64,000 nt of DNA from a virus. Both the position numbers and the translations under genes were made by a program. Positions 40,772-56,966 of the stretch are shown here, piece by piece. Where the stretch lies: positions 28,336 to 92,335 of the IMG/VR virus record IMGVR_UViG_3300036770_007174; one strand, written 5' to 3'. A model generated the notes under the pieces. It searched no databases and was not told the DNA's origin. It saw only the letters and a list, made by a program, of their open reading frames with translations. Position 1 is the first letter of the stretch. Each line of letters starts with the position of its first letter.

Positions 40772-42670
40772 ATGCTGCGTCCACCGCCGCAACTCACAGT
40801 CAGCCAATGGGCCGATCAGCACCGGGTGCTGAGCACCCGCGCCTCGTCGGAGCCGGGGCCGTGGCGCACATCGCGGACCCCATATCTCCGGGACATCATG
40901 GATGCGCTCTCCGCGGTGCATCCCGCCCGGCGCGTGGTGTTCATGAAAGGCGCGCAGGTCGGCGCTTCCGAAGGGGGCAATTGCTGGTTGGGCTACATCA
41001 TGCACCACGTCCCGGCGCCGGTGCTGGCGGTGCAGCCAACCGTGGAACTGGCCAAGCGGTTCAGCCGGCAGAGGATCGATCCCCTGTTGGAGGAGACGCC
41101 CGCCCTGCGCGAGCGGGTGGCGCCGGCGCGGGCCAGGGACAGCGGCAACACCATGCTGTCCAAGGAGTTCCCGGGCGGCATTCTGGTGCTGACCGGCGCC
41201 AACTCGGCGGTGGGGCTGCGCTCGATGACGGCGCGGTTCCTGTTCCTCGACGAGGTCGATGCCTATCCCGGCGACGTCGAAGGAGAAGGCGACCCCATCG
41301 CTCTGGCCGAGGCCCGCGCTCGAACCTTCGGCTGGCGGCGCAAGGCGTATCTGGTCTCGACACCGACCATCGCCGGGCGCAGCCGGATCGAGCGGGAGTA
41401 TCAGGCCAGCGACCAGCGGCGGTTCTTCGTGCCGTGCCCGCACTGCCATGCGATGCAGTGGCTTCGGTTCGAGCGGCTGATCTGGGAGAAGGGCAACCCG
41501 GCCTCAGCGGTCTATCACTGCGAGGCCTGCGACACGCCGATCGGCGAGCACCACAAGACGGCGATGCTGGCCGACGGCGAGTGGCGCGCGACGGCGGAGG
41601 CGTCCGACCCGCACACGGTCGGTTACCACATCTCGGCGCTCTACTCGCCGGTAGGCTGGCTTTCGTGGGAGCAGATCGCGCGGGACTGGGAGGCGGCGCA
41701 GGGCAAGGCGGAGGACCTCAAGACCTTCCGCAACACCGTGCTGGGCGAGACCTGGCAGGAGCACGGCGAGGCGCCCGATTGGGAGCGGCTGGTCGAGCGG
41801 CGGGAGGATTTCCCGCTCGCCACCGTCCCACCGGGCGTGCTGGTGCTCACCGCCGGAGTTGACGCGCAGGACGACCGCATCGAGGTCGATGTGTGGGGCT
41901 GGGCCGAGGGATACACGTCCTGGCTCATCGACCATGTGGTGATTGCCGGCAGTCCGCGGGAGCGGGCGCCGTGGGACGAGCTGGCGAAGCTACTGGCGCG
42001 GGACTGGCCACGCGGCGGAGGCGGGATGCGCATCGCCAAGGTCTGCGTCGACACCGGCGGCCGGGACACGGCGTCGGTCTATGGCCACCTGCGCCATCTC
42101 CGGGATCCGCGCATTGCGCCGACCAAGGGCGTGGAGGGCTGGAACCGAGCACAGCCGGTGCAGGGACCGACGCTCGTGGACGCCCTGGTGAACGGCCAGA
42201 AGTTGCGCCGCGGGTTGAAGCTCTGGACGGTATCGGTCTCGACCTGGAAGGCGGACCTGTATCGCCGGCTCTGGCTCGGACGCGGCGACGCGGACGAGTT
42301 CCCCGAGGGTTGGGTGCATCTGCCGCGGGGGATTGAAGTCGAATGGGTGAAGCAGCTGGTCGCCGAGCAACTGCGCTCGACAAAGGACCGGCGAGGCTTC
42401 GCCCGGCAGGAGTGGTCGAAGCTCCGGGAGCGGAACGAGGCGCTGGATTGCGCGGTGCTGGCGCGCGCCGCGCTATGGCTGCTCGGTGCCGATCGCTACG
42501 GCGAGCGGTTCTGGCAGCGGTTGCGGGAGGAACTGGCTGATGCTCCGGTGCTGGTGCACCAGCTTCCCGCCGCTGAGAAGCAAGCAGTGCCGGCCCCGCT
42601 GGCACCCAGCAACGCGCAGCCGATGCGACCGCGCAACTGGCTTGGTGCTCGCTCCGGCTGGCTGCGCTGA
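40772..42670 (+). CDS. terL: Terminase large subunit, lambda GpA family
   Basis: TPYL, KGAQVGASE, LDEVD, STPT, VPCPHC, AGVD, DTGG, NEALD. Confidence 0.95.
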   Translation: MLRPPPQLTVSQWADQHRVLSTRASSEPGPWRTSRTPYLRDIMDALSAVHPARRVVFMKGAQVGASEGGNCWLGYIMHHVPAPVLAVQPTVELAKRFSRQRIDPLLEETPALRERVAPARARDSGNTMLSKEFPGGILVLTGANSAVGLRSMTARFLFLDEVDAYPGDVEGEGDPIALAEARARTFGWRRKAYLVSTPTIAGRSRIEREYQASDQRRFFVPCPHCHAMQWLRFERLIWEKGNPASAVYHCEACDTPIGEHHKTAMLADGEWRATAEASDPHTVGYHISALYSPVGWLSWEQIARDWEAAQGKAEDLKTFRNTVLGETWQEHGEAPDWERLVERREDFPLATVPPGVLVLTAGVDAQDDRIEVDVWGWAEGYTSWLIDHVVIAGSPRERAPWDELAKLLARDWPRGGGGMRIAKVCVDTGGRDTASVYGHLRHLRDPRIAPTKGVEGWNRAQPVQGPTLVDALVNGQKLRRGLKLWTVSVSTWKADLYRRLWLGRGDADEFPEGWVHLPRGIEVEWVKQLVAEQLRSTKDRRGFARQEWSKLRERNEALDCAVLARAALWLLGADRYGERFWQRLREELADAPVLVHQLPAAEKQAVPAPLAPSNAQPMRPRNWLGARSGWLR

Positions 42671-43130: not shown

Positions 43131-43247
43131 TCAGCCGCGGAACAAGTACTTCAACAGCGCCGCAATGGCCACGATGATTAGGATGAGGACGAGGATACCC
43201 ACAAGGCCCATTCCCCAACCCGCATGGCCGTCCATCATCTGATACAT
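43131..43247 (-). CDS. 38-aa membrane peptide (antisense moron)
   Basis: MYQMMDGHAGWGMGLVGILVLILIIVAIAALLKYLFRG; lower GC than flanks. Confidence 0.55.
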   Translation of the reverse strand: MYQMMDGHAGWGMGLVGILVLILIIVAIAALLKYLFRG

Positions 43248-43394
43248 TTCGATCCATCTCCGGGCGCTGAGTTGAGGTCTGACTGTGAGCAGCACAGGAC
43301 CCGACGGCAAGAATATTTCTGTGCTCTCGATGAACACTTTCACCGGAGGCGAGATGACCCTCTCTTGCGCTGGCGGGCTTCCATGAGATCAGGA

Positions 43395-44873
43395 ATGAGC
43401 GGACGCCTCCGCGAGGCCTGGCGCGCTCTGCGTGGCTACGCTGCAGCCCAGGACGCCCGCGCGTCCACCTGGGCGGCCTCCGGTGGCAGCGCCAACAGCG
43501 AGGTGGCGAGCGCATCGAGCACCATTACCCGCCGCGCCCGCGATGCCGTCCGGAATGACCCCTACGCCGCCCGTATTATCGACCTCTGGACCGGCAACGC
43601 CGTCGGCGCCGGTATCACCACCCGCTGGCCCGACAAGAAGCACGCCGATGCCTGGCGGCGATGGGCCGAGAGCACCGCCTGCGACGCCGAGGGACGACTC
43701 GACCTCTATGGGCTGCAGGCGCTGGTGATGCGCTCCGTGGTCGAGAGCGGTGAATGCCTGGTTCGGCTGCTCACCAGCGAGCCGACATCCGTCAACCCCA
43801 TTGGCCTGCGGTTGCAGGTGCTGGAGAGCGACCATCTCGACGCCAGCCGGACCGGCACGATCGGCGGCGCTATCACTGTGCAGGGCATTAGCCTCGATGC
43901 CACCGGCGCACCGGCAGCGTACTGGCTGTTCCCGCAGCATCCGGGCGCCAGCTGGTATCTGGCTGGCATGAGCCAGAGCAGCGTGCCGATCCCTGCCAGC
44001 GAGGTACTGCACATCTATCGCAAGCGCAGACCCGGTCAGCTACGCGACGTGTCCTGGCTGGCACCGATCTTGCTGCGGCTGCGCGACCTCGGCGACTACG
44101 AGGCCGCCCTGTTGATGAAGGCCAAGATCGAGGCGTGCCTCGCCGCCGTGGTGACGGAGGAGGGTGATGAGGTGCTCACCGGTCCCGCGGCGGGTCTGCT
44201 GAAGGACGCGCAGGGCCGCACGGTAGAAGCCTTCGAGCCGGGGATGATCCTGTATCGCCGCGGCAGCGGCAGCGTCGAAGTGGTCAACCCATCCGGCGGT
44301 GGCAGCCACACCGCCTTCGCGCGGCGGGCGCTGGAAGCGGCCTCGGTCGGCGCCGGACTGACCTACGATCAAGTGTCCGGCGACCTCACGGCCGCCAACT
44401 ACTCCAGCCTGCGGGCGGGCAAGATCGAGTTCCGCCGGCTTTGCGAGCAGGTGCAGTACGGCATGCTGATCCCGATGCTGGTGCGGCCCATCGCCGACCG
44501 TTTTCATCAGCAGGGTGCGCTGCTGGGCCTTTGGGGCGCGGAGATGCCGCCCGATTTCGCGCATGTCCCACCGGCGCACGAGATGATCGATCCGCTGAAG
44601 GACACCACGGCGTTGATCGCCCAGGTGCGCGCCGGCTTCGTGCCGCAGCCCGAGGCTGTGGGCTCCTTCGGCTACGACTTCCGCCAGGCGGTGGAGATGA
44701 TCCGCGAGGCCAATGGACTGCTCGACGACGCCGGTATCTCGCTCGACAGCGATCCCCGCCGCGTCGCCAAGTCGGGATCCGCGCAGGACGCGGCCCAAAT
44801 GGCGGCCATCGAGATCGCCGCGACAGGTGCCGCGATGCCGGCGCAGACGCAGGCCCCGCAACCTCAAGGCTGA
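43395..44873 (+). CDS. Portal protein, lambda family
   Basis: RARD.VRND, ESGE, RPGQLR..S, SGDL...NYSS.R.G, IDPLKD. Confidence 0.93.
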   Translation: MSGRLREAWRALRGYAAAQDARASTWAASGGSANSEVASASSTITRRARDAVRNDPYAARIIDLWTGNAVGAGITTRWPDKKHADAWRRWAESTACDAEGRLDLYGLQALVMRSVVESGECLVRLLTSEPTSVNPIGLRLQVLESDHLDASRTGTIGGAITVQGISLDATGAPAAYWLFPQHPGASWYLAGMSQSSVPIPASEVLHIYRKRRPGQLRDVSWLAPILLRLRDLGDYEAALLMKAKIEACLAAVVTEEGDEVLTGPAAGLLKDAQGRTVEAFEPGMILYRRGSGSVEVVNPSGGGSHTAFARRALEAASVGAGLTYDQVSGDLTAANYSSLRAGKIEFRRLCEQVQYGMLIPMLVRPIADRFHQQGALLGLWGAEMPPDFAHVPPAHEMIDPLKDTTALIAQVRAGFVPQPEAVGSFGYDFRQAVEMIREANGLLDDAGISLDSDPRRVAKSGSAQDAAQMAAIEIAATGAAMPAQTQAPQPQG

Positions 44874-44877
44874 CACC

Positions 44878-46989
44878 ATGACCGAACCCATCGAACCGGG
44901 CGGGAGCGATCCCGCACCGGTGACGACGCATGCCAATCGACTTCCCACCGATGGGCAGTCGATCACCGCCGCCCGCGCTCTCTCGGCACCGGCGACCGTC
45001 AACCGCGCCGCGCGCACCGTCGAGGTGGTGTGGTCCACAGGCGCCCGTGCCCGCAACTTCGTCCCACCCCTTGGCCTGATCACCGAGGAACTCGACATGT
45101 CGCCCAACGCGGTGCGCATGCAGGGGCTGCGAGATGGCGGGACCCCGGTGCTCAACACCCACCGCAGTGGTGATGCCCGCGACGTCGTGGGACGCGTGAT
45201 CGCCGCGCGGCTGGAAGCCGGCCGCGGCATTGCCACGCTGCAGTTCTCGTCCGCGGCCGATGTCGAGCCGCTGTGGCAGCGCATCGCCGACGGCACGCTG
45301 CGCAGCGTCAGCGTCGGCTATCGCGTGCACCGCTACGAGCCGATCCCGGATTCGGTCGCCGGCACCGTACATCGCGCCGTCGATTGGGAGCCCTACGAGA
45401 TCTCCGTTGTCCCGCTGCCGGTCGATCCAGCCGCCGCCGTGCGCGGCGCCAGTGACACCCCGCCCATGCCGGCCATCGAGCCGGTCATCCCCGATCCCGC
45501 CCTCACGATCACCCAGGAGACGACCATGCCGGACCCGGCAGACGCCGCGCCGACCACCACTGCCACTGGCCAGGAGGCCAATCCGACCATGCCCCCCAAC
45601 ACTGCGACTGCACCCACGGCGTCGGCGGCCCCGGCCACGACGTCGCCCCCGGCGCCCGACCTCGATGCCATCCGTGCCGAGGCCGATCGCGCTGCCACCG
45701 AGCGCATCGCCAGCTATGACCCCGTGCTCACCGCCGCCCGCGGCCTGCTGCCGGACGAGCAGATCGATGCCCAGCGCCAGGCCGCCATCCGCGAGCGGAT
45801 CTCCACTGACGTGCTGCGGGGCCGGTTGTGGGATGCCTTCGCCCGGCAGGGGCGGAGCACGCCGCCGACGCTGCCGGCCAATCCGGCTGCAGGTCCGGGC
45901 GCCCAGGACCCCGAGAGCGTCCGCGACGCCATGGCCGAGGCGCTGGCCGTGCGCGCCATGCCCGGCTACCAGCCGGCCGGCGGGGCAGCGGGACGCCACA
46001 GCGAGTTCCTCGGCTGGCGCCCCTCCGACATGGTGCGGGAACTGCTGACGCTGCGCGGCGAGCGCCAGGTGCCGCGCGATCCCGTCCGTCTCGCCGAGCG
46101 TGCCTTCCACACCACCAGCGACTTCCCGGCCCTGCTCTCGGCCGCGGCCAACAAGATGCTGCTCGCCGCCTACGCGCCGGCCGCCCCCAGCTACCGCCAG
46201 GTCTTCCTGCGGCGCGACTTCCGCGACTTCAAGCCGCACCGCCACCTGCGGATCGGCGACTTCCCAGTGCTCCAGCCGCTGCTGGAGAACGGCGAGATCC
46301 AGGCCGGTACCATGTCCGAGAGCCAGGAGATCGTGCTGCTGCAGACCTTCGCCCGGCGCATTCGCGTGACCCGGCAGATGCTGGTCAACGACGACCTGGG
46401 TGCGTTCACCGATTTCGCCGCGATGATCGGCCGGCGCGTCGCCGACTTCGAGAATGCCACCGCCTATGGGCTGATGAACCTCGCCAACGGCGACGGTCCG
46501 ACGTTGCTCACCGGCAGCGCACCGGTGTTCGCCACCGCGGCGACGCGGGCCAACAAGGCGGCCTCCGGCACGGCGCTGGACGAGACCAACATCGGCAAGG
46601 GCCGCGAGGCGATCATGAAGCAGCGCTCGCTCGACGGGCTGCCGATCGCGCTCGGCCGCAGCATGCGCGTGCTGGTGGGGCCGGCGCTCGAACTCGCGGC
46701 GCTGAGGCTGACCACCTCGATCACCCCGGCGAACTCCGGCAGCGTGAACCCCTATGTCGGGCTGCTGCAGCCGGTGGTGGAGCCGCTGATCCCGGCCAAC
46801 CGCTGGTATCTCTTCGCCGAGCCCCCGACGACGCCGGTCTATGTCTACGGCTACCTCAATGGCGCCGAGGGGCCGCAGGTCACCACCGGCCCCGTCTCGG
46901 GCGTCGATGGCGTCGAAGTGTCGGTGATCTTCGACTTCGGGGTGGGTGCCATCGACTGGCGCGGCGCCTGGTTCAACCCCGGCACCTGA
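44878..46989 (+). CDS. Prohead protease / major capsid protein fusion
   Basis: N-terminal protease (LNTH, VSVGY, WEPYEISVVP), Pro/Ala/Thr linker, capsid part (TTSDFP, DFK, NDDLGAF, DFG.GAIDWRG). Confidence 0.92.
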   Translation: MTEPIEPGGSDPAPVTTHANRLPTDGQSITAARALSAPATVNRAARTVEVVWSTGARARNFVPPLGLITEELDMSPNAVRMQGLRDGGTPVLNTHRSGDARDVVGRVIAARLEAGRGIATLQFSSAADVEPLWQRIADGTLRSVSVGYRVHRYEPIPDSVAGTVHRAVDWEPYEISVVPLPVDPAAAVRGASDTPPMPAIEPVIPDPALTITQETTMPDPADAAPTTTATGQEANPTMPPNTATAPTASAAPATTSPPAPDLDAIRAEADRAATERIASYDPVLTAARGLLPDEQIDAQRQAAIRERISTDVLRGRLWDAFARQGRSTPPTLPANPAAGPGAQDPESVRDAMAEALAVRAMPGYQPAGGAAGRHSEFLGWRPSDMVRELLTLRGERQVPRDPVRLAERAFHTTSDFPALLSAAANKMLLAAYAPAAPSYRQVFLRRDFRDFKPHRHLRIGDFPVLQPLLENGEIQAGTMSESQEIVLLQTFARRIRVTRQMLVNDDLGAFTDFAAMIGRRVADFENATAYGLMNLANGDGPTLLTGSAPVFATAATRANKAASGTALDETNIGKGREAIMKQRSLDGLPIALGRSMRVLVGPALELAALRLTTSITPANSGSVNPYVGLLQPVVEPLIPANRWYLFAEPPTTPVYVYGYLNGAEGPQVTTGPVSGVDGVEVSVIFDFGVGAIDWRGAWFNPGT

Positions 46990-47089: not shown

Positions 47090-47431
47090 ATGAAGAACTT
47101 CGTCCAGCCGGGCCTCTCGGTCTCGCTGCCCATGCCGTACGACCGCACCTCTGGCCAAGGCGTGCTCGTCGGTGCCCTGTTCGGTGTCGTCGCGGTCGAT
47201 GCGCTTTCCGGTGTCACCGCCGATGTCGCGGTGAACGGCGTGTTCGATATCACCAAGGAGGCGCCGCTGGTGATTGCCGTCGGCGCCCGGGTGTTCTGGG
47301 ACAATACCAACCGCCGGGTCACCACCACCGCCACCGGCAACGTCGCCATCGGCCATGCCGTCGCCGCTGCGGCGTCGGCCGACACCACGGTGCGGGTCCG
47401 TCTCTCCGGCTCCACCGCGGCAGGCACCTGA
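47090..47431 (+). CDS. DUF2190 capsid cement/decoration protein
   Basis: MKNFVQPG, SGQGVLVG.LFGV, GVF, V.WDNT. Confidence 0.88.
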   Translation: MKNFVQPGLSVSLPMPYDRTSGQGVLVGALFGVVAVDALSGVTADVAVNGVFDITKEAPLVIAVGARVFWDNTNRRVTTTATGNVAIGHAVAAAASADTTVRVRLSGSTAAGT

Positions 47432-47457
47432 CGCCGCCTCACCTCAGGAACCCCGCC

Positions 47458-47634
47458 ATGACCTATCTGATCGCCCGCTTCCGCGAGGCCAGCACCTATG
47501 GTGCGCTCACCGGCGTCTTCGCCGCGCTCGGCCTGCATTTCGATCCCGGCGTGATGCAGAACATCACCCTCATCGGCACTGGCATCGCCGGCCTGCTCGG
47601 CATCCTGCTCCGCGACCGGGGGGCCGGCGCATGA
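47458..47634 (+). CDS. Putative holin (2 TM)
   Basis: 58 aa, RFREASTY + two hydrophobic segments; overlaps the endolysin start. Confidence 0.65.
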   Translation: MTYLIARFREASTYGALTGVFAALGLHFDPGVMQNITLIGTGIAGLLGILLRDRGAGA

Positions 47635-48011
47635 TGACGGCCCGCGACAAGGCCCGGCTCGCCGGCGTGCATCCCGACCTGGTGGCCGTCGTCGAGGCGG
47701 CGCGCCAGCTTCTGCCCTTCATCGTGGTGGAGGGGATGCGCACGCGCGAGCGCCAGGCCCAGCTGGTGAAGGCCGGCGCCAGCCGAACGATGGACAGCCG
47801 CCACCTCACCGGTCACGCCGTCGATCTCGCCCCGACGGTGGCAGGCAAGGTCCGCTGGGATTGGCCGTTATTTTTTCCTATGGCCAAGGCGATGAAGGAC
47901 GCGGCCCAGGCCCGCGGCGTTGCCCTGGTCTGGGGTGGCGACTGGCCGAAGTTCCGCGACGGTCCGCACTTCGAACTCAACCGCGATGCCTATCCGGCGG
48001 GGAGGGGCTGA
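47631..48011 (+). CDS. Endolysin, M15 (L-Ala-D-Glu) peptidase
   Basis: LAGVHPDL, EGMRT.ERQ, SRHLTGHAVD, WGGDW..FRDGPHFEL. Confidence 0.92.
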   Translation: MMTARDKARLAGVHPDLVAVVEAARQLLPFIVVEGMRTRERQAQLVKAGASRTMDSRHLTGHAVDLAPTVAGKVRWDWPLFFPMAKAMKDAAQARGVALVWGGDWPKFRDGPHFELNRDAYPAGRG

Positions 48012-49375
48012 TGTCGGCCTTCGCCTCCATGTTGGCCGCTGTGCACGCTGACACCAACATCGGCACGCCGGCCGACTTCCGCCGCCCGCCCGGCCCCTGG
48101 GTGCCGGCCCGCGTCGTTCTGTCCCGGCCGACCGACACCATCGGCGGGCTGGGCGGCATCGCGACCCGGGCCGGCAGCCTGGCCGCCGCTCTCCTGGCCG
48201 GCGACATCGCGCCGCTCGTGCCGCGGCGGGGCGATGAGCTGCTGCTCGACGGCAGGGTGCGCAGCATCGAGACCGCCGAACCCGACCCGCTCGGCCTGTC
48301 CTGGCGCCTGGTCCTGTCCGATCTGCTCTCCGAGGCCGCGCCCGACCCGGTGATCGGCGCCATCCGCTACGATGCCTGGGACGTGCCGTCCTCCGGCCTG
48401 ACCCAGGCGGAACAGGCCGCGCTGTCGCAGACGGGCTTCACGCACCGTGCGCCCTTCTGGGCCGCGGTCGCTGGCAGCAGCGTGACCCTCCCGGCGGCGA
48501 CCCAGGCGCGCATGGACGCCGAGATCGCCCATGCGGCCGCCGCGGGCCTTGCCTTCTGGGCCTTCCTCGGCTGGGACCCGTCCACCCCGGAGATCACCGC
48601 GCTGAACCTCTACCGGTCGAGCAGCCGGCGCGGCGACATCGGCTTCTGCATGATCGAGAACATGCAGGGCCTTTACTATCTCGGGACCTGGCTGCCGAAC
48701 GTCGCCCGCACGATCGCGCTCATGGCCGAGCCCGGCTACCGGAAGGTCTTCGGCACCCGCCCGCTGCTGTTCATCAACTCCATGTCCGATGCCGACATCA
48801 TGGCGCGCTTCGGCAGCATGGACGCCACCGCAACGGTGCTCGACGGCATCCGCGAGCACTGCGTCCTCGCGGGTGTGGGCGACCCCTACATCGTCATGAT
48901 GGACGGGTGGCACACCCGCGCCGCCGCCCTGGCCGGCTATGGTGCCGATGCCGCCTCGTCCTATGCCGCGATCGGGCAGATCGCCGCGCCGACGCCCTAC
49001 ATCTCCCTGATGGCCGCGGCCGAGCAGTGGCGCATCGATGCCGCGGCGCTGGGCGTGGATGTGGTGCCGCCGCTGACCTTCGGCTGGGACTACCGGCCGC
49101 GCATCGGCGGACCGCCCGCCTGGTTTGGCGCCGCGGCGACCGGCGATCCCAACGCCCACTGGCTGCCGCCGACCCCCGACGAGATCGCACGGCATGCGGC
49201 CGATGCCGTCGCATGGCTGCGCGCCAACGAACCTGCCGCTCCGGCGCAGATCGCGATTGCCTATGCCTGGAACGAGTTCAGCGAGGGCGGCTGGCTCTGC
49301 CCGACCTTCCTGGCCGGGGAGCCGGCCGGCGACACCGCGCGCATCGCCGCCCTGGCGACCGTCCTCAAGCGATAG
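48011..49375 (+). CDS. Head-tail joining protein fused to a GH99/WbsX-like glycoside hydrolase domain
   Basis: N-terminal ~105 aa (MSAF..., PRRGDEL.LDG..., D.LGL.WRL) like head-closure proteins; C-terminal AIRYDAW, RPLLFI, GWDYRPR, YAWNEFSEGGWLCPT. Confidence 0.7.
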   Translation: MSAFASMLAAVHADTNIGTPADFRRPPGPWVPARVVLSRPTDTIGGLGGIATRAGSLAAALLAGDIAPLVPRRGDELLLDGRVRSIETAEPDPLGLSWRLVLSDLLSEAAPDPVIGAIRYDAWDVPSSGLTQAEQAALSQTGFTHRAPFWAAVAGSSVTLPAATQARMDAEIAHAAAAGLAFWAFLGWDPSTPEITALNLYRSSSRRGDIGFCMIENMQGLYYLGTWLPNVARTIALMAEPGYRKVFGTRPLLFINSMSDADIMARFGSMDATATVLDGIREHCVLAGVGDPYIVMMDGWHTRAAALAGYGADAASSYAAIGQIAAPTPYISLMAAAEQWRIDAAALGVDVVPPLTFGWDYRPRIGGPPAWFGAAATGDPNAHWLPPTPDEIARHAADAVAWLRANEPAAPAQIAIAYAWNEFSEGGWLCPTFLAGEPAGDTARIAALATVLKR

Positions 49376-49398
49376 CCGCCCCCCGCAAGGAGACCCCC

Positions 49399-49620
49399 AT
49401 GCTGATCCGCTTCACCATGCCCTGCGTCCTGGGCACGACCGAGTACGCCTCCGACGCGGAGGCAGATCTGCCGCCCGAGGTGGCCAACATGGCGCTGATG
49501 CTGGGACGCGGCGTGCGCGCGATGCCGGAGCCACAGTCTGCGCCGCCGCAGTCGGCACCGGAGGAGCCGACCGCCGCCACCCCGGTGCCCGATGAGAGCG
49601 CCGGGGCAGAGCAGACCTGA
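49399..49620 (+). CDS. Hypothetical protein
   Basis: AAGGAG RBS, 73 aa. Confidence 0.6.
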   Translation: MLIRFTMPCVLGTTEYASDAEADLPPEVANMALMLGRGVRAMPEPQSAPPQSAPEEPTAATPVPDESAGAEQT

Positions 49621-49635
49621 CGGACGCCGCATCCC

Positions 49636-50085
49636 ATGGCGACCCCCCTGCGCGAGGCGGCGCTCGCTGCCGTCGCGGCGCGGCTGCGCGCGCAGATGCC
49701 CGACGTGGCGCTCGATCGCGCCCGGCGCAGCGCCATCGATGCCGATCGCGAGCGCCTGCCGCGCCTCATCCTGCGCGGCGAGGACATCGAGGCCGACGAC
49801 ACCCAGGAGCCCGGCCGCACGCACTACCGGATCGGCTTCGCGGTCGTCGCCGTCACGCGCGCCGGCTCGGACCTGGACCTCGAACAGGCGCTGTCATCGC
49901 TGCACGCGCGCATCGTCGCCGCCCTGGCCGGCTGGGTGCCGGACATCTGGGGTCTCGGCGACGTGGCCGAGCAGGGCGCGGAGTTCGTCCTCTACGACGC
50001 CGAGGACAGCGCCAAGCCGGCCGGCGAGTGCGTCGCGCGCTTCTCCATGCGCGCCGAGGCACCGAGCGGCAGTGCCACCCTCTGA
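49636..50085 (+). CDS. Tail completion/terminator protein
   Basis: 149 aa, starts TPLREAALAAV; immediately before the tail tube gene. Confidence 0.65.
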   Translation: MATPLREAALAAVAARLRAQMPDVALDRARRSAIDADRERLPRLILRGEDIEADDTQEPGRTHYRIGFAVVAVTRAGSDLDLEQALSSLHARIVAALAGWVPDIWGLGDVAEQGAEFVLYDAEDSAKPAGECVARFSMRAEAPSGSATL

Positions 50086-50133
50086 CCCCGTCCTCTGTCG
50101 CCTCCCATCCCCTGGCGTTGAAAGGCCCGGCCC

Positions 50134-51300
50134 ATGACCACCTCCACGGTTCGCTCCAAGTTCGCGGCGTTCGCGGTGAAGCTCGAAACCCTGCCGGGCC
50201 AGGACGCCATCGGCGGCACCCCGGCAACCGGCGACTGGGTGCTCGGCGAGATCGAGTGGGACTACGATCCGCAGACGATCGAGAACCCGGAGATCACCGG
50301 CAGCCTCGATCGCGCACCGGGGATCGTCGGCGGGCTGCGCCCGAGGTTGCGCATCCGGGTGCCGCTGCGCGGCTCCGGCGGCTCCATGCCTCCGCCGGAC
50401 TGGGGCAAGCTGATGCAGTGCTGCGCCTACAGCGAGACGTTGACCCCGGCACCGATCGGCGCGCCGACGGCCGCCGTCGCCGGCACCCAGCTTTCCATCA
50501 CGGCGGGCGCGCCCTTCGGCACCACCCCGAACCAGTATCGCGGCATGCCGCTGCTGGCCTCCGGCGACCAGACCTTCACCACGGCGATCATCGGCTACAC
50601 CGGCGCCAAGGTGATCTTCCTCGGGGAAATGCGGGCCGTGGCCCCCACCACCGCCACCCTGATCCAGATCCCGGTGCACAATCTCTACGCGCCGACCTCG
50701 GACGAGGCGGTCTACAAGACCTGCACCATCTATGCCTATGTCGACGGCTACAACTGGCGGTTCGGCGGATGCGTCGGCACCTGGTCGCTGGAACTGACCA
50801 CCGGCGGCATCGGCATGCTGACCTTCGAGATGCGCGGCCAGATGCTCGCCAAGACCGGCGCCGCGCTGCCCACCGGATGGAACACCGTCATCCGCCCGGC
50901 CGCGCCGCGCTTCGTGGCCGGGCGCGCGCAGCTCAACTACGTCCTCGCGCGGTGTCGCAGCCTGACCTTCAACGCCGGCGTCGGCGTCACCCTGCCCGAC
51001 AACCCCGAGGCCATCGAGGGCTACGATCCCGCCGTGCCGATCGAGCGCGCCAGCGGCGGCAGCATCGACCCCCTCAAGGACACCGTGAACGGCACCCAGC
51101 TCTACGACAATTTCCGCTCCGGCGCCGGCATGTCGCTGTTCGCGGTCGTGGGCAGCATGCCGGGCAACCGCTTCATCATCACGGCACCCAATGTGCGCGC
51201 GCAGGGCATGCGCCATGGCCAGCGCGAGGGGTTGATGACCGACGAGATCCCCTTCGCCTGCAGCGGCGTCGACTCTGCGCTGTACCTCGCCGCCTTCTGA
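50134..51300 (+). CDS. Major tail tube protein
   Basis: 388 aa beta-rich; VKLET..G.D, V.LRGSG, PDWG.L...C, GCVG.W; precedes chaperones. Confidence 0.78.
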   Translation: MTTSTVRSKFAAFAVKLETLPGQDAIGGTPATGDWVLGEIEWDYDPQTIENPEITGSLDRAPGIVGGLRPRLRIRVPLRGSGGSMPPPDWGKLMQCCAYSETLTPAPIGAPTAAVAGTQLSITAGAPFGTTPNQYRGMPLLASGDQTFTTAIIGYTGAKVIFLGEMRAVAPTTATLIQIPVHNLYAPTSDEAVYKTCTIYAYVDGYNWRFGGCVGTWSLELTTGGIGMLTFEMRGQMLAKTGAALPTGWNTVIRPAAPRFVAGRAQLNYVLARCRSLTFNAGVGVTLPDNPEAIEGYDPAVPIERASGGSIDPLKDTVNGTQLYDNFRSGAGMSLFAVVGSMPGNRFIITAPNVRAQGMRHGQREGLMTDEIPFACSGVDSALYLAAF

Positions 51301-52170: not shown

Positions 52171-52929
52171 ATGGCCATTGCGCCCCCAGGGATCGGCACC
52201 ACCACCCGCGCCGGCATCCGCGCGGCGATGGATGCGGAGATCGTCGCCATCGCCGCCGGACTGCGCCAGGCGGTGGCGCGCACCGGCCGGCAGGTCCAGC
52301 AGGAACTGCGCGCCCAGGCGCGGGCGGGCGGCTTCAAGGATGGCGGCCGGGCGATCGCCAATGCGTGGCGCCTGCGCATCTATCCCGCCGAGGGCACGGC
52401 CCCGCGCACGTGGCGGCCGGCGGCGCTCGTGCATTCTAACGCGCCCGAGATCGCCGACGCCTTCGACAAGGGCGTGCCCATCGTGGCCAAAGGGCAGCGC
52501 TGGCTCGTCTTCCCGACCGCCTGGAATGCGCGGCAAGGCCGTCGCGGGGCCTCGTCGCGCGGCGGGGTGCGGGTGACCCCGGCGCAGATGATGGCGGCCA
52601 AGGGCGACGCCTTCGTGATCCGCTCGAAGTCCAATCCCGCGGTGCGCCTCTGGTGCCTGCGCGTGCGCGAGGCGCGCGGCCTGTCGCGCCGCGCGCGCAA
52701 CCGCATCCGCCTCTGGGCCGGGCCGGCGGAGGTGCTCACCGGCAACCGCAAGGGGCGCCAGCAGGCCGCGCGCGACCTGCTCGACCGGGGGTTCGTGCCG
52801 ATGTTCCTGCTGATGAAGCGCGTTGCCGTGCGCAAGCGGCTCGACATCGAAGCCGTGCGGTCGCGGGCGGGCGGGATGTTCGCCGCCAATGCCATCGCCG
52901 AACTGCGGCGCGGAGGCGGTCCGGGATGA
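52171..52929 (+). CDS. Phage minor structural protein (DUF6441-like)
   Basis: Basic protein with AALVHS.AP.I..AF, WL.FPT, VPMFLL; overlaps the tape measure start. Confidence 0.7.
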   Translation: MAIAPPGIGTTTRAGIRAAMDAEIVAIAAGLRQAVARTGRQVQQELRAQARAGGFKDGGRAIANAWRLRIYPAEGTAPRTWRPAALVHSNAPEIADAFDKGVPIVAKGQRWLVFPTAWNARQGRRGASSRGGVRVTPAQMMAAKGDAFVIRSKSNPAVRLWCLRVREARGLSRRARNRIRLWAGPAEVLTGNRKGRQQAARDLLDRGFVPMFLLMKRVAVRKRLDIEAVRSRAGGMFAANAIAELRRGGGPG

Positions 52930-55900
52930 GCGGCAGCGCGCGCAACGTCTCGATCCGCGTCTCGGCCGAGGAGGTCGATTCGGCGCGGGCGCGCCTGGAA
53001 GCGCTCGGCGACGTGGGCGACCGCGCGCTGCGCCGGGTGGAGACCGCGGCCCAGGCGGCGGCCAACGCCTTCGCGGGCGTGGCCCGCCCGGCGGATGCCG
53101 AGGCGGTGCGCCGCCGCGGTGAGGACATCGCCGCCTATGGCGTCGAGCTCGACCGGCTGCGCGGCAAGTTTGACCCGCTCTTCGCCGCGCAGCAGCGCCA
53201 CAAGGCCCTGCTTGAGGAGATCGGCCGCGCCGAGCGCGTCGGCGCCATCGATGCCGTCACCGCCGCCGGCGCGCGGGACAAGGCCACACGCGGGTATCTT
53301 GACAGCACCGCAGCCTTGCGCGGCATGGCGCCCGCCGCCCAGGCCGCGGCGAATGCCCAGGTGCAGCTGGCGCGGACGGGCGAGCTGTCCGCCTACCAGC
53401 AGCGCATCCTGAACATGCAGCTGAGCGACGTGTTCCAGACGCTCGCGCTGGGCATGCCGCCCATGATGGTGTTCCTCCAGCAGGGGCCGCAGATCGTCGA
53501 TGTCTATGGCGGCGTCGGCAACACGCTTCGGGCGCTGACCGCCGCTGTCGGGGGACCGTTCGCGCTGGCCTTCGGGGTCGGGGCCGTGGCGGTCGGCGGC
53601 CTGGCCGCCCGCGCCGCGAGCCTGACCGGCGAGGCACGCACGCTGTCGGTCGCCCTGCGCGCCGTCGGCCGCGACGCCGAGATCGCCACCGCCGACCTGC
53701 AATCCTACATCCGGGCGCTGGAACAGCAGGGCGTCGCGCGCAGCGACGCGCGAGCCATCGTCGCCGACCTCGCCCGCACGCCCGGCCTCGCGGCGGGCGA
53801 TATCGGCCGCGCGGCGCGGCTGGCCCCGGACCTCGCCGCGGCGACCGGCACCGATGCGGCGGCAGCGGGCAAGCAGTTGGCCGACCTGTTCGCCTCGCCC
53901 GCCGACGGCATCCGCAAGCTCGACACCGCGCTCAACTTCCTGACCGCATCCCAAGCCGGGGCGATCCGCACCATGCTGGAGCATGGCGAGCGCACCAAGG
54001 CGGTCGACGTCGCCGTCGATGCCCTGACCAGGCGGATCGGCGGGCTGTCGCGGGACGCGCTCTCGCCGATGGGCACGGCGCTGCGCGACCTGTCGAGCAA
54101 CTGGACCACCTTCATGGACTCGGTCGCGCAGTCGCGGCCGATCGTCGCCCTGGTCGAGACGCTGAACCTCGCGGTCCAGGGCATCAGCTGGGCAGTCGGC
54201 TCGGCGCCGGCCGGGGAGCGCACCGATCGCGAGATTGCGCGGCTCGAAGGGTTGCTCGCCGGGACCGACAGTTATGGTGCGCCGAGCGTCGCCGGCGACG
54301 CCCGCCGCGTCATCGAGCAGCAGCTCGCCGACGCCCGCGCCCGCCGGATGATCCAGGGCGGCCCGGTCACCGGCGGTGCCGCGGCGGCACCTGAGCCGGG
54401 CGGCCGGATCGGGGGCAGCCCGATCGGCGAGCCGTCTCCCGGGCAGCTTGCCGCCCAGCAGAAGCAGGTCGATCTCCTCACGCAGTCCTGGCGCGACCAG
54501 CAGCGCGTGCTGGCGGCATCGATCCCGGACCGGGTGCGGGTGCGCGCGGAGATCGCCGCCGCGCGCGAGGCGGCCGAGAAGAACATCACCGGCGCGGCGC
54601 GCGAGGAGCTGATCCGCCGCCGCGTCGCCGAGGCGATCCGCGGCGAGGCCGATGCGCGCGGTCAGGAGATCGCCGCCATCACCCGCGAGGGGCAGGCCGC
54701 GCTGGCGCTGGCTCAGGCGTCCGAGCAGGGCCGCGCGGCGATGCTGCGCAGCAAGGCGGCGGCCGAGGCGCACGCGCAGGCGGCGACGCAGACCGCGGCG
54801 AACGAGCGCGTGCTGACCGAGGCGATCCTGAACCGTGGCGCGGCACAGGAGGCCGCCAGCGGTGCCGAGGCGGCGGTTGCGCTCAAGGAGCAGAATGAGG
54901 CGCTGCGCCGGCTGATCGACGCCGAGCGCCAGGGCGACCGCGCAGCCTTCCAGGCGGCGGTGGCCGAGCGCACGCGCGAGGCGACGCGGGCGATGGAGGC
55001 GCAGCGCGAGGTCGCGACCGACCCGGCGATCCGCGAGGCGTTGACGGCGCAGATCGATCTGGTCCGCCGCCGCACCGAGGAGCAGGCGGCGCTCAACGCC
55101 GAGTTAGCGCAGGCCCGTCGTCTCTCCGCCGGGCGCCGCGAGCTCGAAGACCTGCGCGACCAGATCGACCTGCTTGGCGAAAGCGCTGCCGTGCGCGAGC
55201 GCGAACTGGCGACGCGGCGGGCGACCCGCCAGTTGGTCCAGGAGGGTGCCGATCCGGCGAACCTCACCGCGGCACAACGCGCCCTGGTCGATCAGGCCGC
55301 GGCGCTCGCCGACGCGAACACGCAGCTTCGCCAGCAGCGCGGCCTCTACGATGGCATCGCCGACAGTGCTGTGCAGGCCTTCGGGCGGGTCGGCGACGCA
55401 ATCACCCAGGCCTTCGTCGGGGGGCAGGGCGCCGCGGTGAACTGGGGCAACGTCACCCGCGGCGTGGTGTCCTCGGTGCTGTCCGAGATCGTGAAGCTCT
55501 CCCTCGTCAATCCGCTCCTCAACGCCGTCCTCGGCACCGAGCGCCCGTCCATGTTCTCGGCCGGCGGCGGCCTGGGCCTGTCGGACATCCTGAGCGGCGG
55601 CAGCCTGCTGGCGCGCGGCGCCGAGTTCCTGGGGTTCGACATCGCGGGCTCGCTCGGCCTCGGCGGCGGCAGCCTGTCGGGCAGCATCGGCACCGCGCTC
55701 TTCGGCGCGACCCCGCTCGGCCCGACCCTGAGCGGCGCGCCGCTCGCGGCCACGCCCGGCCTCTTCGGCACCTACGGCACCTCGCTCCTCGGCGGCTCGC
55801 AGCTGACCCTGAGCGGCGCCTTCGCCGGCATCGGCGGCGGCTTCGCGGCCGGCGCGATGCTCAACACCCTGCTCGGCCGCAGCCCCGCGCAGCAGACCAA

Positions 55901-56966
55901 TGGCATGATCGGCAGCGGCCTCGGGGCCTTGGGCGGCTTCCTGGTCGGCGGTCCGATCGGTGGGCTCATCGGCGGGCTTGCCGGCGGCGGGCTGGGCGGC
56001 CTGTTCGGGCCGGGCGAGTCGGTGCAGGGCTGGGGCTACTGGCTCGAAAGCCAGGACGGCCGCCTCAAGCCCATCGACCGCCGCTGGTTCAACGAGTCCG
56101 GCGCCCAGCACTTCGCCCATGCTGACCAGCAGGTCGCGGCCATCAACGCCCTGCTGGAGCAGAGCGGCCTGTCCGTGACCGGAGCCCGCAACGTCGGCGG
56201 CAACAAGAACGGTCCCGACCGTTCCTGGGGCGGCGCCGGCTCTTTCGAGGAGGCATTCGCCGACCTCCGCTTCACCGCCGCCAACGACGATGGCCTGAAC
56301 GCCGTCCTTGCCGGCCGGAGCTTCGCGGGACCGGCCGACCTGCAGACCATGCTGGCGGTCCGGGATACCATCCGCGGCCTGACGGCAACACCGGCCGAGA
56401 AGCTGGCTGACGCCATCGCGGCGGTGAACGCGCAGTTCGACGCCCTGACCGAGCAGGCGCGCAGATACGGTCTGGCCGAGACCGGCCTCGCCGAGGCCCG
56501 CAGCCGCGCCATCGCCGACGCGCAGGCCCAGGCAAACCCCGGCGCGCAGTCGCTGCTCGCCGACCTCGCCTTCGGCGGGCAGTCGGCGCTGGCGCCGGAG
56601 CAGCGCTACTTCGCCGCGCTGTCGCTGCTGAACGATGCGCGCGGGCGCTTGGGCTCGGGCGGGGACGTGGACTCCTTCGCGGCAACCGCGCGCCAGGTGC
56701 TGCCGGTGGCGCGCGACTTCCTCGGCACGTCGGACCGCTACGCCGGCCTAGTCGCCGATGTGGCCGGCGTGCTGTCGCGCGGCGGCGGGGACACGGCCGG
56801 GCTGGGCGCGCTGCTCCAGGCCCAGGCCGACGGCGGCGACGCGCTGCGCGAGACCTTCGCCCGCTACGGCGAGCGGCAGTTGGATGTCGCCACCGCAACC
56901 CTCGCCGAGTTCCGCCGCCTCGCCTCGGCGATCGAGGCCCTGCTCGCGCGGCGCACCGCCGCCTGA
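52926..56966 (+). CDS. Tail tape measure protein
   Basis: ~1346 aa, Ala-rich coiled coil; QLSDVF.TLA.G.PP..V.LQQGPQI (lambda-type TMP N-terminal motif); Gly-rich C-terminal part. Confidence 0.9.
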   Translation: MSGSARNVSIRVSAEEVDSARARLEALGDVGDRALRRVETAAQAAANAFAGVARPADAEAVRRRGEDIAAYGVELDRLRGKFDPLFAAQQRHKALLEEIGRAERVGAIDAVTAAGARDKATRGYLDSTAALRGMAPAAQAAANAQVQLARTGELSAYQQRILNMQLSDVFQTLALGMPPMMVFLQQGPQIVDVYGGVGNTLRALTAAVGGPFALAFGVGAVAVGGLAARAASLTGEARTLSVALRAVGRDAEIATADLQSYIRALEQQGVARSDARAIVADLARTPGLAAGDIGRAARLAPDLAAATGTDAAAAGKQLADLFASPADGIRKLDTALNFLTASQAGAIRTMLEHGERTKAVDVAVDALTRRIGGLSRDALSPMGTALRDLSSNWTTFMDSVAQSRPIVALVETLNLAVQGISWAVGSAPAGERTDREIARLEGLLAGTDSYGAPSVAGDARRVIEQQLADARARRMIQGGPVTGGAAAAPEPGGRIGGSPIGEPSPGQLAAQQKQVDLLTQSWRDQQRVLAASIPDRVRVRAEIAAAREAAEKNITGAAREELIRRRVAEAIRGEADARGQEIAAITREGQAALALAQASEQGRAAMLRSKAAAEAHAQAATQTAANERVLTEAILNRGAAQEAASGAEAAVALKEQNEALRRLIDAERQGDRAAFQAAVAERTREATRAMEAQREVATDPAIREALTAQIDLVRRRTEEQAALNAELAQARRLSAGRRELEDLRDQIDLLGESAAVRERELATRRATRQLVQEGADPANLTAAQRALVDQAAALADANTQLRQQRGLYDGIADSAVQAFGRVGDAITQAFVGGQGAAVNWGNVTRGVVSSVLSEIVKLSLVNPLLNAVLGTERPSMFSAGGGLGLSDILSGGSLLARGAEFLGFDIAGSLGLGGGSLSGSIGTALFGATPLGPTLSGAPLAATPGLFGTYGTSLLGGSQLTLSGAFAGIGGGFAAGAMLNTLLGRSPAQQTNGMIGSGLGALGGFLVGGPIGGLIGGLAGGGLGGLFGPGESVQGWGYWLESQDGRLKPIDRRWFNESGAQHFAHADQQVAAINALLEQSGLSVTGARNVGGNKNGPDRSWGGAGSFEEAFADLRFTAANDDGLNAVLAGRSFAGPADLQTMLAVRDTIRGLTATPAEKLADAIAAVNAQFDALTEQARRYGLAETGLAEARSRAIADAQAQANPGAQSLLADLAFGGQSALAPEQRYFAALSLLNDARGRLGSGGDVDSFAATARQVLPVARDFLGTSDRYAGLVADVAGVLSRGGGDTAGLGALLQAQADGGDALRETFARYGERQLDVATATLAEFRRLASAIEALLARRTAA

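Follow-up and report, generated by a model that had tools for sequence, protein, structure and literature searches.

A phage head-tail joining protein continued by a GH99-like, glycosidase-type barrel: a possible enzymatic collar at the virion neck

Virion-borne enzymes that degrade polysaccharides play a central part in determining which hosts a phage can infect, in the penetration of biofilms and in practical applications of phages, and they are normally sought at the tail tip. The locus described here raises the question of whether such an enzyme may also be carried at the neck. It lies in a stretch of viral DNA of 64,000 nucleotides (nt), hereafter the window, which corresponds to bases 28336-92335 of the 92,335-bp IMG/VR virus record IMGVR_UViG_3300036770_007174. 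A single unbroken open reading frame (ORF) of 454 amino acids (aa) at window positions 48011-49375 (plus strand) encodes a gpFII-type head-tail joining domain which runs on into a barrel of the glycoside hydrolase (GH) type. The probable, if by no means certain, explanation is that the gene product is a stopper with an appended glycosidase-type barrel, by which six glycan-cleaving, or at least glycan-binding, barrels would be placed on the neck ring. The parts of the gene are as follows:

48011..49375, plus strand: whole gene, FII stopper domain and GH99-like barrel, 454 aa plus stop
48011..48325, plus strand: gpFII-type head-tail joining (stopper) domain, aa 1-105, with an N-terminal helix, a beta-sandwich and a flexible hairpin at aa ~42-52
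48326..48352, plus strand: Pro-rich linker LSEAAPDPV, 9 residues, aa 106-114, beginning where an unfused sibling FII gene has its stop codon
48353..49372, plus strand: (beta/alpha)8 barrel, aa 115-454, with a GH99/GH71/WbsX-like glycoside hydrolase fold
49082..49102, plus strand: GWDYRPR motif, aa 358-364, at a barrel strand end
49262..49291, plus strand: YAWNEFSEGG motif, aa 418-427, with the putative catalytic pair E422/E425

The gene and its stopper domain

The preliminary description of this DNA claimed one continuous ORF with domains of ~105 and ~345 aa and quoted two sequence motifs. All of this holds: the ORF at 48011..49375 is uninterrupted, Pfam family PF05354 covers aa 1-101, fold matches cover aa 109-454, and the motifs are present as GWDYRPR at aa 358-364 and YAWNEFSEGGWLCPT at aa 418-432. 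The gene's ATG shares one base with the stop codon that ends the M15 peptidase ORF upstream (TGATG), and the equivalent ATG is the start of the sibling FII gene in the same record. With a G+C content of about 73%, long chance ORFs abound in this DNA, e.g., one of 401 aa on the antisense strand at 47990-49195; the plus frame is backed by homologues with E-values down to 5e-261. The antisense ORF was rejected as a gene, as were an alternative TTG start at 47861, the homologues and the sibling beginning at MSAF, and initiation of the barrel at an internal codon, for which the region near 48330-48352 offers no convincing ribosome-binding site with a start.

The first 101 residues match the Pfam family Phage_attach (PF05354; 37.7 bits against a cut-off of 26, E 3.1e-9, profile positions 1-98 of 99) and pass the NCBIfam FII equivalog NF049848 (26.1 bits against a cut-off of 25, profile positions 2-93 of 93). 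The AlphaFold2 model of the 454-aa monomer, with a mean predicted local distance difference test score (pLDDT) of 89.8 and a predicted template modelling score (pTM) of 0.88, shows a helix at aa 2-13 followed by a six-strand sandwich, low pLDDT and disorder being confined in this domain to aa 42-52. Foldseek comparison with BFVD returned dozens of phage proteins of 100-130 aa with target-normalised TM values of 0.5-0.7, carrying names such as ‘Head Tail Attachment’, ‘closure knob’ and ‘head-tail joining’. The assignment of the N-terminal domain to head-tail joining proteins, made in the preliminary description, is thereby borne out by both curated cut-offs and by fold, since a FII fold was looked for and found. 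A profile search of PDB sequences with the FII alignment gave chance hits only and did not reach gpFII, and a search with the FII domain for longer homologues gave close relatives only, being uninformative on other FII cargo.

In the virion structure of lambda, gpFII is a hexamer consisting of a helix (residues 4-24), a sandwich and a hairpin (46-62) that becomes ordered only upon gpU binding, and its C-terminal surface loop (108-117) touches gpU on the surface of the ring (PMC10721106). The gene studied here is the only FII gene of its late module and lies between the head decoration and tail tube genes of a large terminase (TerL)-portal-protease/major capsid protein module, a position typical for a stopper.

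The barrel family and its putative active site

The model shows a (β/α)8 barrel from about aa 109 to aa 454, where pLDDT exceeds 90 at most positions. Foldseek matches of this part to solved structures have E-values of 5e-9 to 1e-6, the best being 5ngw, a ‘glycoside hydrolase-like protein’ (VIA Z 23.4, 305 residues aligned). It is followed by the GH99 endo-α-1,2-mannosidases/mannanases of Bacteroides (Bt, Bx) and human (Z 20-21.4, root-mean-square deviation (rmsd) 3.2-3.8 Å over 273-292 residues), by GH71 α-1,3-glucanases (Z 18-19) and by other clan GH-A barrels at Z 16 or below. The ESM Atlas neighbours of the barrel are WbsX and GH99/WbsX clusters.

At the level of sequence families the outcome is different. 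The Pfam GH99 family PF16317 has no match in the protein at E up to 1 and none in the whole record, while a control genome and L138, which encodes a bona fide GH99 enzyme, do match. The Pfam WbsX family PF14307 reaches only 11.3 bits (cut-off 25.1, E 0.24) over aa 387-432, i.e., stays below its threshold, which some other members of the barrel family do pass (P0156 with 31.4 bits, P0040 with 28.6 bits) or come close to passing. NCBIfam holds no model for the barrel family, and profile and sequence searches of PDB chains with the barrel and with one of its longer relatives, P0029, yielded chance hits only. Nevertheless, the family is large: the barrel profile collects 3278 clusters at 50% identity with E ≤ 1e-3, 951 of them with E ≤ 1e-30, and more than 527 genome matches, in Planctomycetota, Hydrogenedentota, Verrucomicrobiota, Armatimonadota, Chitinophagaceae, Bradyrhizobium and Acetobacteraceae. 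Most members have 340-400 aa and Sec- or Tat-like leaders, and some cellular relatives are fused to sulfatase, CBM4_9, F5/8-C, SLH or true WbsX domains. In P0029 (760 aa) a true WbsX domain (97 bits) precedes a barrel of this family, and the two may work in tandem. Because both occur in this one protein, WbsX and the barrel family are distinct paralogous families. The barrel is a member of a large unnamed family of exported proteins of carbohydrate-active type, sister to WbsX and GH99 though distant from both. Hence, the GH99/WbsX-like TIM barrel of the preliminary description stands as far as the fold (Z 20-23) and the aligned NExxEG motif are concerned, but the protein fails the Pfam thresholds of both families and belongs to a separate sister family.

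Residues of the putative active site are conserved within this family. Of 172 family members, 168 have E422 and 168 have E425, glutamates which no fused phage form lacks; R119, D121, E171, R250, R281, D313, Y318, D360, Y418, W420, N421, E422 and E425 each occur in at least 90% of the 172, and G358, D360, R362 and P363 in 87-97%. The bona fide GH99 enzyme of L138, a Verrucomicrobiales genome (466 bits to PF16317), reads ITSFNEWHEGTQIE, and global hhalign of the 172-row profile against it places YAWNE422xxE425GG on FNEWHEG in a weak alignment (E 0.0016, probability 6.5%), which also pairs the RP, GxDxxxxY and GWD motifs and sets GWDYRPR on GYID.R. A 12-row barrel alignment compared by hhalign with a single GH99 sequence gave no informative match. 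Titles of PDB entries name the BxGH99 variants E333Q and E336Q and the human MANEA variant E404Q, and the glutamates of the NEWHEG motif in BxGH99 and MANEA are those we take to be catalytic. Because the motif is conserved and aligns to the GH99 glutamates, a GH99-like catalytic centre is likely to be retained in the barrel.

Recurrence of the fusion and its genomic setting

The fusion is not confined to the window. Full-length homologues form 12 protein clusters (P0002-P0013) which are 51-87% identical, all match PF05354 and share the same architecture. Viral contigs L001-L004 carry the fusion in the same syntenic module, and it is found as well in the alphaproteobacterial metagenome-assembled genome contigs L058 (Rhodospirillales) and L059 and in metagenome contigs L144, L146 and L157. 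In total, the fusion is present in at least 20 contigs or clusters, independent of one another and drawn from different samples, with identities of 50-87%. The recurrence, which the preliminary description had proposed as a check, is thus wide and within the same module, so the fusion is neither a sequencing error nor a one-off stop loss. The FII-barrel genes of L145 and L059 are frameshifted, most likely by assembly or sequencing errors, and two gene calls, P0006 (394 aa) and P0027 (461 aa), are truncated versions of fused proteins.

The clearest view of the junction is offered by the record itself, which contains a second late module upstream of the window, from record position 1735 to about 25000. 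Its genes compare with those of the window module as follows:

terminase 91%, portal 92%, protease-capsid 85% identity
decoration 96%, M15 92.5%, FII 76% identity
tail genes 42-59% identity

The sibling FII gene (record 8699-9016) encodes 105 aa ending in ...LSWRLILAET-stop and is separated by a 2-nt spacer from the following gene, whose start is at 9019. The DNA homology between the two FII genes is 80% over nt 1-305 and then ends, and the barrel exists in a single copy in the whole record. As the sibling FII stops at the junction, the barrel is an addition at the exact C-terminus of an ordinary working stopper. Between the modules, identity falls from about 90% to about 50% within FII itself, as would suit a protein turned to the head with its N-terminus and to the tail with its C-terminal part. 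The two modules probably represent tandem related prophages or an assembly chimera; because the record holds both, its CheckV estimate of 95% completeness for one virus is doubtful.

The same barrel is also found on other neck proteins. In about a dozen myovirus-like viral contigs (L006-L010, L012, L013, L016-L020), and in the Acetobacteraceae genomes L118, L120 and L136, it ends a protein of 630-660 aa (type B). Three of these genes, which belong to myovirus-like prophages of isolate genomes and each code for a gpU-fold terminator with barrel directly upstream of the tail sheath gene, are located as follows:

L017:9134-11089
L013:6296-8239
L020:8405-10336

In L017 the gene order is terminase, portal, scaffold, capsid, two small genes and the barrel gene, followed directly by tail sheath and tube. 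The type B N-terminal domain (phrog_13532), modelled alone with pLDDT 82, superimposes on lambda gpU (3fz2) with Z 14.2 and rmsd 2.5 Å over 124 of 129 residues. It also matches the terminator folds of T5 p142, phage Chi, the pyocin collar, the gene transfer agent and Mu, as well as neck chains of phages 812, E217, Pa193 and P1, and has an inserted domain of about 80 aa at about aa 97-174. In two further proteins, P0038 and P0034, the barrel is preceded by Mu Gp37 (PF08873, 32.8 bits against a cut-off of 25; phrog_490), Mu gp37 being a hexameric tail terminator (PMC11915804), and in P0037 and P0039 a phrog_6774 domain precedes a barrel of the neck clade. No sequence relationship among the FII, type B and gp37-like classes of N-terminal domain was detected by hhalign.

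The tree of 210 barrel sequences (FastTree only, midpoint rooted, the sample being picked by a profile that included the phage forms) places all 39 neck-fused copies in one clade of 43 leaves with support 0.994, and the FII-fused barrels form a subclade with support 0.999. The four additional leaves are P0027 (the truncated type B call), P0036, P0014 and P0015, the latter two inside the FII subclade. The sister group of the neck clade consists of three non-fused proteins (P0016, P0045, P0048), of which P0016 and P0045 have N-termini that are Tat-like leaders. Stand-alone viral barrels are scattered among cellular copies. Three of them lie beside tail-fibre or tail-protein genes (L029:9917-11065, L031:9920-11011, L034:9995-11074), which suggests that the stand-alone viral barrels are separate acquisitions used at the tail end. 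The argument for display at the neck is strengthened because the same barrel clade has been fused independently to tail terminators. A wider scenario may be put forward tentatively: a phage-specific GH99-like clade may have been captured once from exported bacterial glycosidases and shuffled onto the C-termini of hexameric neck-ring proteins (FII, gpU-fold and Mu gp37-type terminators, phrog_6774) in siphoviruses and myoviruses, forming a six-fold collar that degrades exopolysaccharide (EPS).

The genes surrounding the fusion in the window are the following:

40772-42670: gpA-type large terminase
43224-44873: lambda-family portal
44713-46989: protease-major capsid fusion, single 758-aa ORF, phrog_4523 ‘major head and protease protein’
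47090..47431, plus strand: head decoration (cement) protein, PF09956, phrog_122
47274-48011, plus strand: M15 peptidase, endolysin-like (domain about 47640-48008), PF13539, phrog_465
49592..50137, plus strand: 181-aa gene with no family match, syntenic in L001-L004 and in the sibling module
50134..51300, plus strand: tail tube protein, 388 aa, PF18906
between the tail tube and tape measure genes: a 191-aa gene, then a DUF6441 gene
52653..56966, plus strand: tape measure protein, 1437 aa, PF06791 TMP_2, E 2.6e-34

The operon is a lambda-like late module with a siphovirus-type tail, long and non-contractile, as a tape measure gene is present and no sheath gene lies nearby; at 1.5 Å per residue of the tape measure protein, we estimate a tail length of ~200 nm. 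The 181-aa downstream gene matches no Pfam or PHROG family, PF11367 included; by position, its product would be a tail terminator or tail completion protein contacting FII. Between the stop of the fusion and the annotated start of this gene there is a 216-nt gap without an obvious gene (49376-49591). The gene of the M15 D-Ala-D-Ala carboxypeptidase/endolysin-like protein is wedged between the decoration and FII genes and translationally coupled to FII, an odd site for a lysis enzyme. It occupies the same place in L001, L002 and both modules of the record, is absent from L003, L004 and L058, and its product may be virion-associated. In the tail tube protein, the Phage_tube_2 match extends over aa 12-350 against only 242 profile positions, indicating an insertion of about 100 aa; the tail tube protein of the sibling module likewise has 388 aa.

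Possible role at the neck and comparison with known systems

If the N-terminal helix and sandwich assemble as in lambda, the protein would form a hexameric ring below the adaptor, with the hairpin at aa ~42-56 inserting into the tail terminator ring. The chain would then continue through the 9-residue Pro-rich linker into the barrel, so that six barrels would encircle the neck just under the capsid, and in other lineages the barrels would be borne on the terminator ring. The barrel may cleave, or at least bind, a host surface polysaccharide such as EPS, capsule or the O-chain of lipopolysaccharide (LPS). Because the glutamate pair and the family-invariant polar residues are kept and the cellular relatives are exported, it most likely still acts on polysaccharide in one of these two ways. 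In that position it would probably remove polysaccharide from around the head end of the virion or hold it there for a time, or else help progeny to get free of debris. Primary receptor recognition is disfavoured since the neck sits a whole tail length away from the receptor-binding tip.

Several points weigh against this proposal. The barrel is below the Pfam thresholds of both GH99 and WbsX, and the residue-level match to GH99 is a weak global profile alignment plus fold similarity. No tested activity was found for any member of the barrel family, and the presence of the fused protein in virions is something we infer. The neck is also an unusual site for an enzyme acting on the cell surface. 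Furthermore, the pTM of 0.88 obtained for the two-domain monomer may mean that the barrel packs against the FII sandwich.

Some of these points would suit a barrel which is on the neck but non-catalytic, i.e., a lectin-like adhesion module or a structural collar comparable with Ig-like and carbohydrate-binding module (CBM) decorations or with lactococcal neck passage structures. Decorations that bind glycans are well known from heads, tubes and necks (PMC13033339; PMC10684548), the barrel family has no known activity, and the window protein scores below the GH99/WbsX thresholds. However, the fused phage forms conserve E422/E425 and the invariant polar residues no less well than the exported cellular enzymes do, and a binding-only module would be expected to relax them, so this explanation is considered unlikely.

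Less credence can be given to the barrel being cut from FII during or after assembly, or released at lysis, and then acting as a soluble enzyme that assists exit or lysis together with the M15 peptidase. The endolysin-like gene is immediately upstream with the TGATG overlap, the linker is short, exposed and Pro-rich, and P0014 and P0015 are 368-aa barrels without FII nested in the FII clade. Yet the fusion persists without M15 in L003, L004 and L058, the same clade sits on terminators in phages with no M15 neighbour, and neither a cleavage motif nor an internal start is evident. The close metagenome relatives of P0014, moreover, are FII fusions, one of them with an assembly frameshift. On this evidence a soluble enzyme seems improbable.

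That the protein alters host glycans for lysogenic conversion or superinfection exclusion, as the name of the nearest Pfam family, Glycosyltransferase WbsX, might hint, is very improbable for a gene of the late structural operon fused to a structural protein, whose barrel has the fold and motif of retaining glycoside hydrolases and whose cellular relatives are exported rather than cytoplasmic. Lastly, a sequencing, assembly or gene-calling artefact, or a functionless stop loss, may come to mind in high-G+C DNA rich in long chance ORFs and with frameshifts in the related contigs L145 and L059, but it is effectively refuted by the same in-frame architecture in at least 20 independent contigs or clusters at 50-87% identity and by a junction lying exactly at the end of FII homology.

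The proposal of a barrel displayed on the neck ring, if true, has several consequences. It would add a new site and mode of action for virion-borne depolymerases, e.g., helping the bulky head to follow the tail through capsule or biofilm, or aiding progeny release. If neck rings carry active glycosidases, depolymerase searches limited to tail fibres and spikes miss an enzyme class. Head-tail joining proteins are described as having low structural diversity (PMC10684548); stopper and terminator proteins would instead become display platforms. The unnamed exported GH99-like family, with more than 3000 clusters at 50% identity, would gain a tractable route to its substrate, and the sibling module without barrel in the same record is a natural control. 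No homologue was found by tblastn among the INPHARED phages, and the literature searched gave no account of a barrel of glycosidase type joined covalently to the ring proteins of stopper or terminator. The occurrence of the same barrel on other neck-ring proteins of unrelated phages suggests that the neck may bear an enzymatic collar not described before.

Compared with known systems, the N-terminal part resembles lambda gpFII in exceeding both curated cut-offs, in its helix/sandwich/hairpin layout and in the place of its gene, which lies between the head genes and those of the tail terminator and tube in a module with a gpA terminase and a lambda portal. Lambda gpFII, however, is a one-domain protein of 117 aa which ends in a surface loop, whereas the window protein runs on into a 340-aa barrel. 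This barrel shares the (beta/alpha)8 fold and the NExxEG, RP, GxDxxxxY and GWD motifs with GH99 (BtGH99, BxGH99, human MANEA) and with the unpublished 5ngw, but at 10-14% identity, without a match to PF16317, and as a predicted virion protein rather than a Golgi or gut-bacterial enzyme. WbsX (PF14307) is the nearest named sequence family, from which the barrel is set apart by its score (11.3 against the required 25.1 bits) and by the tandem occurrence of both domains in P0029.

Among neck structures, the closest parallel is provided by the neck passage structure proteins of lactococcal phages, which have CBM or pectin-lyase-like ends at the head-tail junction (PMC10684548). They present a glycan-directed domain at the neck, a location which in our case is predicted from the FII and terminator partners. 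They are, however, separate accessory proteins with other folds, docked on the connector and known mainly from phages of Gram-positive hosts, whereas in the window protein a core ring protein itself bears the putative glycan-directed domain by covalent linkage, and Alphaproteobacteria are apparently the hosts. Tail-spike and tail-fibre depolymerases resemble the proposed collar in being virion-borne enzymes against host surface polysaccharide, and stand-alone relatives of the barrel adjoin tail fibre genes. Trimeric beta-helix tail spikes differ from the window protein, whose fold is a TIM barrel and whose N-terminal domain is a stopper rather than a tail adaptor; and whereas tail-spike depolymerases sit at the tail tip or baseplate, for the barrel described here a place at the other end of a long tail is predicted.

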